From the IMG/VR virus record IMGVR_UViG_2639762987_000008: a DNA stretch of 4,144 bases; one strand, 5' to 3'. Below, in pieces: positions 1 through 4,144 of the stretch (positions are counted from its first letter, which is position 1; each line of letters starts with the position of its first letter). The notes beneath the pieces were generated by a model. The model was not told the DNA's origin. It saw nothing but the letters and a program-made list of their open reading frames with translations, and did not search any database. A program made the position numbers and the translations under genes. This DNA comes from a virus (lineage: Duplodnaviria > Heunggongvirae > Uroviricota > Caudoviricetes).

Positions 1-32
1 TTTTGAACGTTTCAGGCTATTTTTCTCGCGTT

Positions 33-69
33 AGGTTCCCGCACAGGTTCCCACGTTTTATGGGAACCC
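33..69. repeat. Short repeat cluster upstream of the integrase start: AGGTTCCC at 33-40 and 45-52 (direct), and GGGAACC at 62-68 forming a 7-bp inverted repeat with GGTTCCC at 46-52 (9-nt spacer). Possible integrase arm-type/att-proximal sites or an operator for int.
   Basis: Read directly from the sequence: ttAGGTTCCCgcacAGGTTCCCacgttttatGGGAACCcg. Function is inferred from position immediately 5' of the int start; no core att site can be defined from this window alone. Confidence 0.35.
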
Positions 70-88
70 GAAATAACGAGGTCGTGTA

Positions 89-1186
89 ATGGCGTACTAT
101 AACATAGAGAAACGACTAAAATCCGATGGCACACCACGCTATCGCTGTAATGTGATTATCAAAGAAAAAGGGGTTATCACTTACAGGGAAAGCAAAACAT
201 TCCCTAAACATGCTCATGCCAAAACATGGGGCACACAGAAAGTGATGGAATTAGATCTACATGGCATTCCATCATCAAATGCTGTTGACGGGCTTACAGT
301 CCGTGACTTACTACGCAAATATTTAAATGACCCAAATGCCGGAGGTAAAGCAGGCCGTACTAAAAGATATGTGCTGGAACTACTTATGGATAGTGACATT
401 TCTGCGATCAGACTATCTGAATTAACAGAAAATGACGTAATAGAACATTGCAGGTTGAGAAACAACGCCGGTGCAGGTCCAGCTACTGTTAGCCACGATG
501 TTAGTTATCTTGGCAGTGTTCTGGATGCAGCCAAACCTGTATACGGAATTAATTACACATCAAACCCAGCAAAAGCCGCTCGTCCATATCTACTTAAACT
601 TGGTTTAATTGGTAAATCAAATCGTCGTAATCGTAGACCAGCATCTGATGAACTAGACATGCTCATTGAAGGCCTTCAACAACGATCTACTCATAAATGC
701 TCAAAAATTCCGTTCGTTGATATCCTCAAATTTTCTGTGTGGTCCTGTATGCGAATCGGAGAAGTATGCCGGTTACGATGGGAAGATCTCGACCAGGAAC
801 AAAAATCTATACTAGTAAGAGACAGGAAAGATCCACGTAAAAAGGAAGGTAACCATATGAAAGTGGCCTTGCTTGGGGAAGCCTGGGATATCGTCCAACG
901 ACAACCCAAAAAATCTGAATTCATTTTTCCATACAACAGCACTTCTGTTACCGCAGGATTTCAGAGGGTAAGAAGCAAATTAGGTATTAAAGATCTGCGA
1001 TACCATGATTTGCGTAGAGAAGGGGCAAGTCGCTTATTTGAGGCTGGTTTTAGTATTGAGGAAGTCGCCCAGGTTACAGGGCATCGTTCATTAAACGTGC
1101 TATGGCAGGTATATACCGAACTGTATCCAAAATCTTTACATAATCGTTTTGAAGAACTCCAAAGGAGCAGAAATAAGACCTCTTGA
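89..1186 (+). CDS. int: Tyrosine site-specific recombinase (phage integrase family), 365 aa
   Basis: Full ORF with GAGG Shine-Dalgarno 7 nt upstream of the ATG. Box I-like segment (MRIGEVCRLRWEDLD), box II HDLR at 1004-1015, GHRS, and the putative catalytic Tyr in WQVYTE at 1112-1114. The N-terminus (YNIEKR...GTPRYR) is consistent with an arm-type DNA-binding domain. Antisense ORFs within it look spurious. Confidence 0.93.
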   Translation: MAYYNIEKRLKSDGTPRYRCNVIIKEKGVITYRESKTFPKHAHAKTWGTQKVMELDLHGIPSSNAVDGLTVRDLLRKYLNDPNAGGKAGRTKRYVLELLMDSDISAIRLSELTENDVIEHCRLRNNAGAGPATVSHDVSYLGSVLDAAKPVYGINYTSNPAKAARPYLLKLGLIGKSNRRNRRPASDELDMLIEGLQQRSTHKCSKIPFVDILKFSVWSCMRIGEVCRLRWEDLDQEQKSILVRDRKDPRKKEGNHMKVALLGEAWDIVQRQPKKSEFIFPYNSTSVTAGFQRVRSKLGIKDLRYHDLRREGASRLFEAGFSIEEVAQVTGHRSLNVLWQVYTELYPKSLHNRFEELQRSRNKTS

Positions 1187-1247: not shown

Positions 1248-1496
1248 ATGCGTATTGAGATCTGCATAGCCAAAGAGAAAATGACTAAAATGCCAAACGG
1301 TGCTGTGGATGCGTTAAAGGAAGAATTAACTCGACGCATCAGTAAGCGTTATGACGATGTAGAGGTGATCGTAAAAGCCACCAGCAACGATGGCCTTTCT
1401 GTTACGCGCACCGCCGATAAAGATTCAGCTAAAACTTTTGTTCAGGAAACTCTGAAAGATACCTGGGAGTCTGCTGACGAGTGGTTTGTTCATTAA
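1248..1496 (+). CDS. dinI: DinI-family DNA-damage-inducible protein (RecA modulator), 82 aa
   Basis: Protein MRIEICIAK...GAVDAL.EEL.RRI...LSV...[17 protein letters not shown] aligns by eye along its whole length with E. coli DinI (MRIEVTIAK...GAIDALAGELSRRI...LSV...QETWESADDWFV). Preceded by an RBS and two LexA boxes. Confidence 0.9.
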
Positions 1497-1562
1497 TTAA
1501 TACGTAAAATCGATAACGGCTGGAAATCATTCAATACTCGCACTATCGGAAGTTCACCAGCC

Positions 1563-1603
1563 AGCCGCAGTATTCTGCCATGACAAGTTGCTGCGGCTTT
1601 TTA
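1563..1603 (+). terminator. Putative rho-independent terminator for the int-dinI transcription unit: stem AGCCGCAG (1563-1570) / CTGCGGCT (1591-1598) followed by TTTTTAT
   Basis: 8-bp GC-rich inverted repeat followed by a T-run on the + strand. The loop is long (20 nt), so stability is uncertain. It sits between the convergent dinI-like gene and the 3' end of the - strand operon (stop at 1607-1609). No comparable T-run follows the hairpin on the - strand. Confidence 0.45.
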
Positions 1604-1606
1604 TGT

Positions 1607-1894
1607 TTAACGGATAAACAGCCAGACCAGCAGACACGCCATCACCGGCACAGCAAAATCCATCAGGCTTGCTACATCCCACACGCGCGGATCAAAACCG
1701 CCCCACCACGGCATATTCATACGCTTGCCATGTCCGAACATTTCAATCCAGCGATATTCTGCCTGGGTGTGTTCACGCGCAATGAAGAACGTACAACCGG
1801 CTATCGCCCCGTAAGCCCAGTTTCCGGTAAAAAGGCCAATCAGTACCTGTGCAGCCACAGCACAAAGTGCATGAAGGAAAGGTGTTATATCCAT
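1607..1894 (-). CDS. Small polytopic inner-membrane protein (95 aa, about 3 predicted TM helices), function unknown; last gene of the - strand operon
   Basis: Strong RBS (AAGGAGGAG) 4-5 nt upstream of the ATG at 1894, 10 nt after the TAA of the upstream gene. Hydrophobic segments FLHALCAVAAQVLIGLFTG, AYGAIAGCTFFIA and VASLMDFAVPVMACLLVWLFI. No lipobox or clear signal peptide. The overlapping + strand ORF 1580-2056 looks like an antisense artefact. Confidence 0.7.
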   Translation of the reverse strand: MDITPFLHALCAVAAQVLIGLFTGNWAYGAIAGCTFFIAREHTQAEYRWIEMFGHGKRMNMPWWGGFDPRVWDVASLMDFAVPVMACLLVWLFIR

Positions 1895-1904
1895 TACTCC
1901 TCCT

Positions 1905-2609
1905 TTATCCGATATCGCTTCGGGAAGTTGATAACAACTTTAATTCTGACTCAAGTTCATCAACTCTTTCAGTCAGTTTCTGGATATGGTGAATCAGTGG
2001 AACAACCAGACGTTCGTACATTACACCTTCGGCAACAAGGCCATTGCTGGAAATAGCTTCAGGAGCATCATTCTCGTTAGCTGGTCGCCAGTGAACAAAC
2101 TGAGGGGCAATTTCTCCTACTTCCTCGGCAATCAATCCATAGAATCCCCAATCGCGCCTGTCATTTTCGCATTGCGACCTGTACCACACAGGGCGCATCT
2201 TGAAAATGAGATCGGCGTGCTCCGAATCTATCGTCTCTACTGAATGTTTATAGCGGATAGACGATGTGGACCGCAGTACAGACGAAATTGCGGGGTCAGG
2301 ATTAAGATAAAGGTTTGCCGCCGCTGTAGTCGTGCCCAATCCCCACAAATAAAACGCTTCACGACCAGTCAGCGGGTAAAAATCTCCACCATAACGACCA
2401 CTTTCCAGATCGTTCACTTCCACTTTGTTTTTCAGCTTATTATCAACTTCAGTTTTTGTGTATCTGGTGCTGATATCCTGCTTTGCACTGGTCATATCAG
2501 TCTGAAGCGTTGATACTTTTCCGTTAATTGAGGAAATATCTTCCTTGGCTTTACTGACATCTCCCTTTAACGTGGTGATGTCTCCTGGAATTACTGTCGA
2601 TGTAGCCAT
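1905..2609 (-). CDS. Tail-fibre-like protein, 234 aa: N-terminal heptad/coiled-coil-like segment plus C-terminal intramolecular chaperone domain (peptidase S74 / endosialidase-chaperone-like)
   Basis: RBS GAGGGAG upstream of the ATG at 2609. Motif S-S-I-R-Y-K (aa 116-121, nt 2247-2264) matches the S-x-x-R-x-K autocleavage/catalytic Ser-Lys signature (SDERLK in K1F endosialidase). Downstream GFYGLIAEEVGEIAPQFV ... LVVPLIHHIQKLTERVDELESEL resembles the GVIAQEV...LVPLLIEAIKEL...LE core of the chaperone domain, as I recall it from memory. Confidence 0.78.
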   Translation of the reverse strand: MATSTVIPGDITTLKGDVSKAKEDISSINGKVSTLQTDMTSAKQDISTRYTKTEVDNKLKNKVEVNDLESGRYGGDFYPLTGREAFYLWGLGTTTAAANLYLNPDPAISSVLRSTSSIRYKHSVETIDSEHADLIFKMRPVWYRSQCENDRRDWGFYGLIAEEVGEIAPQFVHWRPANENDAPEAISSNGLVAEGVMYERLVVPLIHHIQKLTERVDELESELKLLSTSRSDIG

Positions 2610-2618
2610 TTGTCTCCC

Positions 2619-2900
2619 TCACATCCAGCCACGAAGTTGATGCTCAACAACAATCGCGTATTTATCGAATATTGACGATTTTTTTGCATCATTAATGATG
2701 CGCACGTTTACAAAATATCCGTCTTCCTTAACACATACCGGTTCGCCATCTTCAGTCAGTTCTCCGCTTTCTTTGTACACGTTACCTATCACGTCAATAA
2801 GAATATCATCCTGCATCGACTCGTCATCATAATAGCCAATACTCTCCATAAAGGCCGAAAAGTCGGCCCTGTCTGCAAATTTGAGTGTTAAATCTTTCAT
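2619..2900 (-). CDS. Small acidic hypothetical protein, 93 aa, translationally coupled to the upstream fibre-like gene
   Basis: Its ATG (2900-2898) overlaps the TGA (2899-2897) of the upstream gene as ATGA; a GGGGAGAG RBS-like sequence lies upstream. Strongly Asp/Glu-rich. Followed 9 nt later by the next gene. No recognisable motif. Confidence 0.6.
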   Translation of the reverse strand: MKDLTLKFADRADFSAFMESIGYYDDESMQDDILIDVIGNVYKESGELTEDGEPVCVKEDGYFVNVRIINDAKKSSIFDKYAIVVEHQLRGWM

Positions 2901-4144
2901 TTAATACTCTCCCCCATTTGCGCATCAGTTAATTCTTTATGCCAGATACGCAGATTACGGATATGACCAAAAAGATGATACTCCCCATTAGTGCCCTGCC
3001 CTCCAATTCGCAATACTGCCCGTGGAACAATTGAAGTCCATGTTGTTTTTGCCGCAACAGATAATTCACCATTACATACGGCCTGAACATCTCCATCAGC
3101 GCCACAACGTAAGCCTGAAATGATTTTCCTCTGGGTTGTTGCCACATATTTATTACACCCTCCCATAGAAATAAAAGGAGAACCGGCATCAGAGAAATTA
3201 TTACCACGGAATCCATGCGTGAACAGACCATTTTCCTGATAATCTTTAACATTAAAGATTAATGGTGATTTGCTGGGAGGGATATCCCAGTTTTTATTAA
3301 CTTCAACAAGAGCACTGAATGGTAATCGGTGAATATTGTTTCTTACAGGTATTGTCACCATGTCGCTGGAGCGAGTGCCAGGAGCCCCTTCAGTAATGAT
3401 AAATGACGTCCTGTACGACCCAATCTCCGCCTGAGGCATCGCAATATCTAACGTAGAGCCATTGGGGATAATACTGATTCCAGGCATCGCCAGGATTTCA
3501 AATCTTGAGCTGATTATCATTTCCNNNNNNNNNNNNNNNNNNNNNNNNNNNNNNNNNNNNNNNNCTGCATCTGAATGAAAAACAAACGCACCATTATCAG
3601 ACATTTTTCCGAACCTTGCACGACACCGGGAATTATCACTTTTCGTCAGACACGATATCGTCGTATAAGAACCTGCCGGGCAGGTGTAAGCATCATTCGT
3701 GTTTACAGCAATTGCCTGATATCCTTGTGCTGTCGGATTTTCATTAATAACAGTTATCCTTCCATAGTTAAACCCATTATCACTGTCGAACGACTCAACA
3801 GACACACTACCCGTGTTATTCCATGCTTCTGGTGTATTTGAATTTCTGAAATAGTTTGTTCTCTGTCCTTCAATCAGCAAACCTTCTCGTTCAAATCGCG
3901 GTTCGTCAACTTCAGCAACGGTTAATACACCTGATTTATTAATGTATGTTGCACCTGATGCGCGTTTGAAGCTAACAACCTTATCGGATGGCATTTTAAT
4001 AACATCATCACCTACAGTTATTTGCTTATAACCAGGCGAAAAGCCAGCAAGCATATCCAGTGAATCGTTAAACGGTATCCACACATCAGGCAGTGGCTGT
4101 AAGACATATTTATACGGCTCTGCTGCCTGGCTTGCATACTCTCT
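2897..4144 (-). CDS. Phage tail-fibre / receptor-binding-like protein with C-terminal LamG-type (concanavalin-A-like lectin) domain; 5'-partial, as the reading frame stays open to the window edge at 4144
   Basis: The reading frame is open from 4144 (upstream of the GTG at 4084 there is no stop: ...REYASQAAEPYKYVLQPLPDV-WIPFNDSL...) to the TGA at 2897-2899. The C-terminal signature ...LRIGGQGTNGEYHLFGHIRNLRIWHKELTDAQM (nt about 2915-2977) resembles the LamG_3 family ending (F.G.IDEVRIWNRALS..EI). Frame is maintained across the N run at 3525-3564. Confidence 0.72.
   Translation of the reverse strand, partial: REYASQAAEPYKYVLQPLPDVWIPFNDSLDMLAGFSPGYKQITVGDDVIKMPSDKVVSFKRASGATYINKSGVLTVAEVDEPRFEREGLLIEGQRTNYFRNSNTPEAWNNTGSVSVESFDSDNGFNYGRITVINENPTAQGYQAIAVNTNDAYTCPAGSYTTISCLTKSDNSRCRARFGKMSDNGAFVFHSDAXXXXXXXXXXXXXXEMIISSRFEILAMPGISIIPNGSTLDIAMPQAEIGSYRTSFIITEGAPGTRSSDMVTIPVRNNIHRLPFSALVEVNKNWDIPPSKSPLIFNVKDYQENGLFTHGFRGNNFSDAGSPFISMGGCNKYVATTQRKIISGLRCGADGDVQAVCNGELSVAAKTTWTSIVPRAVLRIGGQGTNGEYHLFGHIRNLRIWHKELTDAQMGESIK
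3525..3564. other. Run of 40 ambiguous bases (N): masked or unresolved sequence inside the fibre-like CDS
   Basis: Seen directly. The flanking reading frame is conserved, so the run probably replaces 40 real bases rather than marking a gap of unknown size. Confidence 0.95.

Follow-up and report, generated by a model that had tools for sequence, protein, structure and literature searches.

Organization of the locus

The stretch of DNA analyzed here (4,144 nt; IMG/VR record IMGVR_UViG_2639762987_000008) is referred to as the window. A 95-aa ORF extends from ATG to stop at positions 1607–1894 on its minus strand, and the encoded sequence exactly matches the one quoted in an initial annotation of this DNA, in which a superinfection exclusion or lysogenic conversion gene was proposed. 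Comparison with matching E. coli chromosomes, including FDAARGOS_497, which is among those that match the window at 100% identity, indicated that the window comes from a lambdoid prophage located beside dusA and covers the end nearest to int. The order of the genes on the minus strand is side tail fibre, 93-aa ORF, 234-aa stub-like fibre, and 95-aa ORF, and lom and J lie farther along this strand in the complete prophage. The 95-aa ORF is the final gene on the tail-fibre strand. Beyond it are a hairpin and two convergent genes on the plus strand, a dinI-like gene with a DinI-like product (1248–1496) and int (89–1186). An Rfam search of the window returned no RNA families. In the full chromosome, int is 88 nt from dusA (window positions 1–1186; positions 6464–8687 of locus L001). 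This distance fits a dusA-targeting prophage, and the attachment site should be at the left end of the window.

The 95-aa ORF is a genuine and constrained gene and no chance ORF, as confirmed by the presence of 561 close homologues, their division into 431 clusters at 50% identity (all of them stand-alone proteins of approximately 90–120 aa), dN/dS values of 0.08–0.19 for the homologues including the non-phage chromosomal copies, and the RefSeq annotation of the protein (WP_022646432.1). Its existence was already known because it is annotated as ‘hypothetical’ in thousands of genomes. A Shine-Dalgarno sequence, AAGGAGG, is located 4 nt before the ATG on the minus strand (positions 1899–1905, CCTCCTT on the plus strand). 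The motif occurs only once in the window, and the other four complete genes match the Shine-Dalgarno consensus for 4–5 nt only, which bears out the earlier statement that this gene has the strongest ribosome binding site in the window.

Neighboring genes

The side tail fibre gene runs off the window, which covers its C-terminal part (2897–4144, minus strand); the full-length protein in the complete prophage has 782 aa. The distal domain of the fibre matches PHROGs 1419 and 5939 and has a weak Laminin_G_3 match. A run of 40 N (masked or unsequenced) is present inside this ORF at positions 3525–3564.

The 93-aa ORF (2619–2900, minus strand) encodes an acidic soluble protein of PHROG 1361, a family of unknown function, and it usually directly precedes the 95-aa gene as its partner. 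A jackhmmer search in a small database of collected ORFs detected 93-aa homologues directly upstream of the 95-aa gene in Comamonas, Pantoea, and metagenomic phages, and hhalign gave a probability of 60% over the full length for this homology. Because the 93-aa homologues are located upstream of the 95-aa gene in these other genomes, the pair is probably a conserved two-gene unit. AlphaFold2 prediction of the 93-aa protein with a shallow alignment gave a pLDDT of 42. A toxin-antitoxin pair was considered for the two genes and rejected, as the 95-aa gene occurs alone in P22-like phages and in chromosomes.

In phage 21 and mEp460_4F5, the 95-aa gene directly adjoins the 93-aa gene, whereas the 234-aa ORF (1905–2609, minus strand) separates the two in this prophage. 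The 234-aa ORF combines an N-terminal anchor of the fibre type with a coiled coil and the intramolecular chaperone domain Peptidase_S74. It looks like a minimal ‘stub’ fibre with no obvious receptor-binding domain. Its N-terminus has 32 aa in common with tail-fibre PHROG 4563, and the Peptidase_S74 domain is at residues 116–172. A 346-aa ORF whose first 32 residues are identical occupies the corresponding position in E. ruysiae (L010), and the site may thus be a variable slot.

Sequence family and conserved signature

The 95-aa protein was searched with hmmscan against all 38,880 PHROGs (E ≤ 0.01), and only phrog_1443 and phrog_34165, both of ‘unknown function’, were matched. The match to phrog_1443 had an E value of 1e-57, with residues 1–94 of the protein aligned to profile positions 1–94 of 97, and phrog_34165 is a fragment family of PHROG 1443. 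No family model in Pfam, NCBIfam, or PADLOC matched the protein, and ‘Ybl63’ is the sole name given by any source. The PHROG 1443 / ‘Ybl63’ proteins have the same length, helices, motif, and position after the side fibre and the 93-aa gene, and they constitute the protein’s own family.

An almost invariant signature, H8 / R40-E41 / Q44-A45-E46 / W72 / D79 / P83, was found in the family. Among 47 members with identities down to approximately 30%, no substitution occurs at R40, E41, Q44, W72, or P83, and the conservation of H8, A45, E46, and D79 is 90% or higher. The set of 133 non-redundant members has the same signature plus Y47, R48, I50, R58, and P62.

Structural or sequence relatives with a known function or activity were not found. 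A sequence profile search of the PDB with the family gave one match at chance level. Two candidates were examined and rejected. The N-terminal domain of PhoR (PF11808) scored 13.3 bits against a gathering cut-off of 27.1, and this is a resemblance of composition and topology only; weak matches to PF11808 were present in 6 of the 47 members (best E = 0.003). The WWGGFD loop was compared with the WWD motif of the haem-handling protein CcmC, and the hhalign probability was 0.2%.

Literature searches by name and by identifiers found no paper on the 95-aa gene family or on an exclusion role for it. The paper on phage phiv142-3 deals with orf6 and orf10 and reports nothing for orf5, the 95-aa homologue. 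The family signature, the predicted topology, the linkage to receptor-binding protein (RBP) genes in four proteobacterial classes, the probable 93-aa / 95-aa pair, and the domesticated chromosomal copies described below appear to be undescribed until now.

Predicted structure and membrane topology

The Kyte-Doolittle plot of the 95-aa protein has clear hydrophobic segments near residues 3–24 and 74–95 and a weaker one at residues 26–39. AlphaFold2 prediction with an alignment of 29 sequences yielded three helices at residues 4–23, 26–53, and 74–94 (mean pLDDT of 92.3 and pTM of 0.78). These results are in agreement with the three hydrophobic helices of the initial annotation, with two strong segments and one weaker segment in terms of hydropathy. 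In the predicted fold, the first two transmembrane helices form a hairpin, which is followed by the conserved polar Trp-rich segment and then by the last transmembrane helix.

The first predicted transmembrane helix (codons 4–23; 1826–1885, minus strand) contains H8 (98% conserved), Q16, and the G20xxxG24 motif. The second helix (codons 26–53; 1736–1819, minus strand) is hydrophobic at residues 26–39 and continues as the polar AREHTQAEYRWIEMF stretch of the same helix. The conserved polar Trp-rich segment (codons 40–73; 1676–1777, minus strand) includes R40, E41, Q44, A45, E46, Y47, R48, W49, I50, R58, M61, P62, W63, and W72, with a mean of 5.3 K/R per sequence. It is the best-conserved portion of the protein, and the charged loop noted earlier is real. 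The third predicted transmembrane helix (codons 74–94; 1613–1675, minus strand) contains S76, D79 (89% conserved), and P83 (98% conserved). The helices and the last place of the gene on the tail-fibre strand both support the earlier description of a small polytopic membrane protein ending the fibre cassette.

In the 133 non-redundant members, the numbers of K/R per protein are 5.9 on the side of the membrane with the conserved loop and 0.5 on the other side. According to the positive-inside rule, the loop is predicted to be cytoplasmic and the topology to be N-in and C-out, a prediction made from charge counts only. The TMHMM note in the phage 21 record disagrees, giving two TMDs with N-in and C-in. 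The C-terminal tail of the family is uncharged, with means of 3.6 residues and 0.44 K/R. With the helix boundaries of the AlphaFold2 model, H8, R40/E41, and D79 are approximately one helical turn inside helices 1, 2, and 3, respectively, and would be located on the membrane side that also holds the Trp-rich loop.

Expression signals and mosaic borders

The gap between the 234-aa ORF and the 95-aa ORF is 10 nt. The initial annotation had suggested looking for a promoter active in the lysogen upstream of position 1894; a consensus scan of the minus strand of the window did not find a promoter-like site upstream of the 95-aa ORF. Given the short gap and this result, co-transcription of the 95-aa gene with the fibre genes is the simplest interpretation. 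The hairpin (1563–1598) has a 10-bp stem and begins 9 nt beyond the stop of the 95-aa ORF. A T run (TTTTTAT) follows it on the plus strand only, and the hairpin thus reads as the intrinsic terminator of the dinI-like gene; it may also stop the minus-strand transcript of the 95-aa gene. It was missed by the consensus scan because its loop is longer than 8 nt. RefSeq annotates an 81-nt pseudogene fragment of a ‘capsid protein’ in FDAARGOS_497 (window positions 1493–1573, minus strand). The last bases of the dinI-like gene and the first bases of the hairpin fall within this fragment, which is probably an annotation artefact.

The arrangement differs among relatives. Upstream of the homologue in the Gally relative, a terminator (4789–4809) and a promoter-like site (4826–4855) are present in an AT-rich spacer of 240 nt, and the homologue in JEP4 overlaps the stop codon of the tailspike gene. 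The GC content in the window has a local peak at the 95-aa gene (0.53 over 1541–1820) compared with 0.38–0.45 (about 0.42) in the flanks. Matches to other phages break exactly at the ends of the gene: PhiR47_1 and PhiR40_1 match positions 1–1895, and PhiR49_1 matches positions 1617–4144. Judged from these alignments, the 95-aa gene is a mosaic junction. The Gally terminator and promoter-like site, the GC peak, and the mosaic breakpoints at both ends of the gene are signs of cargo. At the sequence level, the gene has the moron-like traits of a deviating base composition and presence or absence among related phages.

These borders also bear on a role at the DNA level, in which the gene would be a conserved ‘linker’ that offers phages homology for recombination at the 3′ border of exchangeable fibre cassettes, and the protein would be of lesser importance. 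The breaks at the gene’s ends, the 90–96% nucleotide identity of the E. coli copies while the flanking fibre and int regions differ, and the presence of 2–7 copies in several genomes are consistent with such a role. However, the dN/dS values are far under 1 and the motif persists in proteins of different proteobacterial classes with identities as low as approximately 30%, and therefore the protein itself is under selection. As the principal explanation, the linker is unlikely, although the DNA-level and protein roles are not exclusive and are compatible with each other. Many IMG/VR contigs end within a few bases of the stop codon of the 95-aa gene. Assemblies probably also break at this gene because of its multiple copies.

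Occurrence and linkage to receptor-binding protein genes

About a third of the complete E. coli genomes (1901 of 5426) carry the 95-aa gene, with a median of 2 and a maximum of 7 copies. Of the 3855 sites in E. coli, 57 are on plasmids. The gene is also found in more than 500 IMG/VR contigs.

The 95-aa gene follows RBP (fibre or spike) genes in alpha-, beta-, gamma-, and deltaproteobacterial phages with several tail types, which makes the positional argument of the initial annotation stronger than was claimed. The order of side fibre, 93-aa gene, and 95-aa gene is shared by phage 21 (where the homologue is CPT_21_24, a ‘putative membrane protein’), mEp460_4F5, a 108-kb phage-plasmid, and the Rac remnant of E. 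coli B, whose copy is WP_000355360.1 in the derivative B95.deltaA. In the degraded Rac remnant, the 95-aa gene is intact though the fibre is truncated. The P22-like phages Gally and JEP4 have the order of tailspike, 95-aa gene, and int; gtrABC occupies the same slot between tailspike and int in P22. Homologues are also located after fibres or spikes in prophages of Desulfovibrio, Chelativorans, and Leclercia. In Comamonas nitrativorans and Pigmentiphaga, a homologue is present between the gene of a DGR variable tail protein and Avd (loci L039 and L040, about 4785–7800), and a 354-aa ORF after Avd is possibly the reverse transcriptase. Among environmental viral contigs, the nearest large upstream ORF matched tail or virion-structural PHROGs in 8 of 10 cases. 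PHROGs 1419 and 5939, which correspond to the distal domain of the fibre in the window, are recurrent upstream neighbors in gamma-, beta-, and alphaproteobacterial loci. One podovirus type (L182) has the gene between the tailspike gene and gp4/gp10-like tail (tail-tube) genes. The related podovirus MW202674 does not have the 95-aa gene, a sign of its accessory status.

In several phages, the linkage extends to lysis genes. The Uetakevirus phiv142-3 (epsilon15-like) has the order of fibre, 95-aa gene, and lysis genes, and Comamonas and metagenomic phages have the order of J or fibre, 93-like gene, 95-aa gene, and lysis cassette. In phiv142-3 and in loci L008, L080, and L082, the homologue is followed by one or two transmembrane proteins, endolysin, and spanins, with gaps that are sometimes 2 to 4 nt or with overlapping genes. 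A Pfam scan found Phage_lysozyme among the immediate downstream neighbors in 2 of 63 loci. Together with the small size and hydrophobicity of the protein, this order could point to a lysis-associated membrane protein expressed late, such as a holin, an antiholin, or a lysis-timing factor. The lysis cassettes of phage 21 and P22-like phages are elsewhere in the genome, and no lysis cassette is present beside the 95-aa gene in the window, phage 21, Gally, or JEP4. In addition, L182-type phages place the gene between tailspike and tail-tube genes, the C-terminal tail is short and uncharged, the conserved polar motif is unlike those of holins, and a holin would not persist as a chromosomal gene under purifying selection. 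Homology to a holin had been named at the outset as evidence against the exclusion proposal; no PHROG annotated as holin or exclusion was matched. A lysis function is thus unlikely, although the adjacent lysis genes in some phages still lend it a little weight.

The tight and widespread place behind RBP genes, with stop and start codons that overlap in some cases, and the location of the paired small acidic protein at the position of a fibre chaperone would also be expected for a morphogenetic factor of the adjacent RBP or for a minor virion or ejection protein. In contrast to these features, the 95-aa protein is a polytopic membrane protein that is nearly constant beside unrelated RBP folds, the gene is absent from the related phage, and intact copies exist without functional fibres and outside prophages. 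We regard this explanation as the least likely of those considered here.

Copies away from tail genes

Several homologues are not linked to tail genes. In five species of Aeromonas (L009, L014, L016, L019, and L024), the gene occupies a single syntenic position in the chromosome, flanked by genes for a pirin and a RIO1-type kinase. Two lipid A acyltransferase genes are located nearby, and no phage genes were found within 6 kb of this site. The kinase and acyltransferase neighbors could be a hint of an envelope function or a coincidence. Five species of Leclercia have the gene at another syntenic site beside a MetE-like gene and a cluster of a periplasmic-binding protein and a branched-chain-type ABC permease. 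The sphingomonad copies have no recognizable tail genes nearby, and the upstream neighbor is ligA (NAD-dependent DNA ligase) in up to four loci. From their substitution rates, the chromosomal copies are under purifying selection. They represent a domesticated chromosomal gene in Aeromonas and Leclercia, and probably in sphingomonads too. Two Aeromonas phages, PS1 and 62AhydR11PP, have distant copies that are not close to any annotated tail gene, and the neighbors in PS1 are helicase/terminase and HNH endonuclease genes. The copies at housekeeping sites and those in the Aeromonas phages suggest a more general membrane role, and they show that the family is not purely a fibre companion.

In line with such a role, the protein could be a general membrane protein (a small enzyme, an ion or ligand binder, or a regulator of a host membrane protein) that is carried as phage cargo and benefits the host in a way unrelated to competition between phages. 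The invariant H / R-E / Q-A-E / D / P signature resembles a binding or catalytic site, and the constrained non-phage orthologues in five Aeromonas and five Leclercia species and the sphingomonad copies also fit this explanation. Furthermore, the phage 21 homologue adjoins other cargo: the sitABCD metal-uptake operon is located directly downstream of it on the opposite strand (L005, 5386–8835), and this region is thus a cargo hotspot. On the other hand, a general function leaves unexplained the position after RBP genes in unrelated phages, even inside structural clusters; no relative in fold or sequence with a known activity was found, and the neighbors of the chromosomal copies have no common pathway theme. 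A function unrelated to phage competition is considered rather doubtful, but it is the principal alternative to the leading reading given below.

Comparison with known systems

The 95-aa gene was compared with several known genes for exclusion or conversion. HK97 gp15, named ‘moron product’ in the HK97 record, is a moron-encoded inner-membrane superinfection exclusion protein within the tail gene region. Both gp15 and the 95-aa protein are small inner-membrane proteins encoded among tail genes of lambdoid phages, and the moron-like arrangement of terminator and promoter is seen in the Gally relative. However, the hhalign probability between the two is 0.4%, gp15 has 62 aa compared with 95 aa and three helices here, and no promoter-like site is present upstream of the gene in this window. 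T4 Imm (83 aa), which blocks the DNA entry of superinfecting phage, is similar in being a small phage membrane protein, and an entry block from the inner membrane is the type of mechanism proposed below for the 95-aa protein. The analogy with Imm drawn in the initial annotation was not supported by homology (hhalign probability of 0.2%); Imm also has another motif and another architecture, and imm is an early gene that is not linked to RBP genes in T4.

T5 Llp and the Cor proteins of phi80/N15 are secreted receptor-blocking lipoproteins that are encoded beside RBP genes, act on the outer-membrane protein FhuA, and vary with the RBP. The gene position adjoining an RBP gene and the idea of an RBP and a protective factor traveling together are common to these systems and the 95-aa gene. 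In contrast, the 95-aa protein had no homology to Llp or Cor in the PHROG search and has no lipobox (L-[AS]-[GA]-C); residues 8–11 are HALC, and C11 is not conserved. It is predicted to be polytopic with a cytoplasmic loop, and it hardly changes from one RBP type to another. Receptor blocking of the Llp/Cor type, the other analogy drawn earlier, is unlikely because of the predicted inner-membrane location, the lack of a lipobox, and the predicted cytoplasmic side of the loop.

The slot between tailspike and int or lysis genes holds serotype-conversion genes in other phages, namely gtrABC in P22, oac in Sf6, and the polymerase and inhibitor genes in epsilon15. The 95-aa gene occupies the same slot in the P22-like phages Gally and JEP4 and the epsilon15-like phage phiv142-3, and several neighboring RBPs look like glycan binders (tailspikes, S74-type fibres, and the weak lectin-like Laminin_G_3 end of the fibre in this window). 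There is no homology between the proteins, and the 95-aa protein is far smaller than the Gtr, Oac, and Wzy enzymes. The resemblance of the 95-aa gene to known protective and conversion genes adjacent to RBP genes is one of position only.

Proposed function

With low confidence, we propose that the 95-aa protein is an accessory factor of the inner membrane, that its gene moves together with RBP cassettes, and that it alters the membrane or envelope of its carrier. The leading reading, placed ahead of general membrane cargo at a rough probability of 0.35, is an exclusion or lysogenic conversion function with its site of action in the inner membrane. In this mechanism, an accessory and non-structural gene would be inherited with RBP cassettes, often paired with the gene for the 93-aa acidic soluble protein, and its product would be inserted into the cytoplasmic membrane of the cell that carries or replicates the phage. 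A putative interface site would consist of H8 (where helix 1 begins), R40/E41/Q44/E46 (where helix 2 ends), D79 (where helix 3 begins), and the Trp-rich loop, and it would bind or act on a conserved inner-membrane component. The resulting change in the envelope might impair a later infection after adsorption or by means of an altered surface-glycan receptor, and direct plugging of a receptor would not be involved. Membrane topology, expression timing, target, and effect on phage infection are all inferred in this scheme.

The intact copies in a degraded prophage and the constrained chromosomal orthologues argue for a product that serves the cell and not the virion. The predicted cytoplasmic loop makes direct blocking of a surface receptor unlikely. 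Several observations argue against exclusion. The protein is nearly constant while the neighboring RBPs vary widely, which is not expected for a receptor-specific blocker; the window contains no promoter-like site for expression in the lysogen; and the gene abuts a lysis cassette in several phages.

A more speculative and somewhat doubtful proposal is that the protein represents a new class of effectors linked to RBP genes, often with the 93-aa partner. The invariant H / R-E / Q-A-E / D / P interface site of the three-helix protein would then work as a small membrane enzyme or a ligand-binding switch that controls the response of the envelope to phage, and the mechanism would be unrelated to the described exclusion and conversion systems. 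If protection or envelope remodelling is true, the 95-aa protein would be among the commonest unrecognized phage-encoded membrane effectors in E. coli and would have a bearing on phage host range and on resistance to phage therapy. Because of its constant position next to exchangeable RBP genes, the 95-aa gene can also serve in practice to mark where an RBP cassette ends on its 3′ side, and it might act as a recombination anchor when fibres are swapped.
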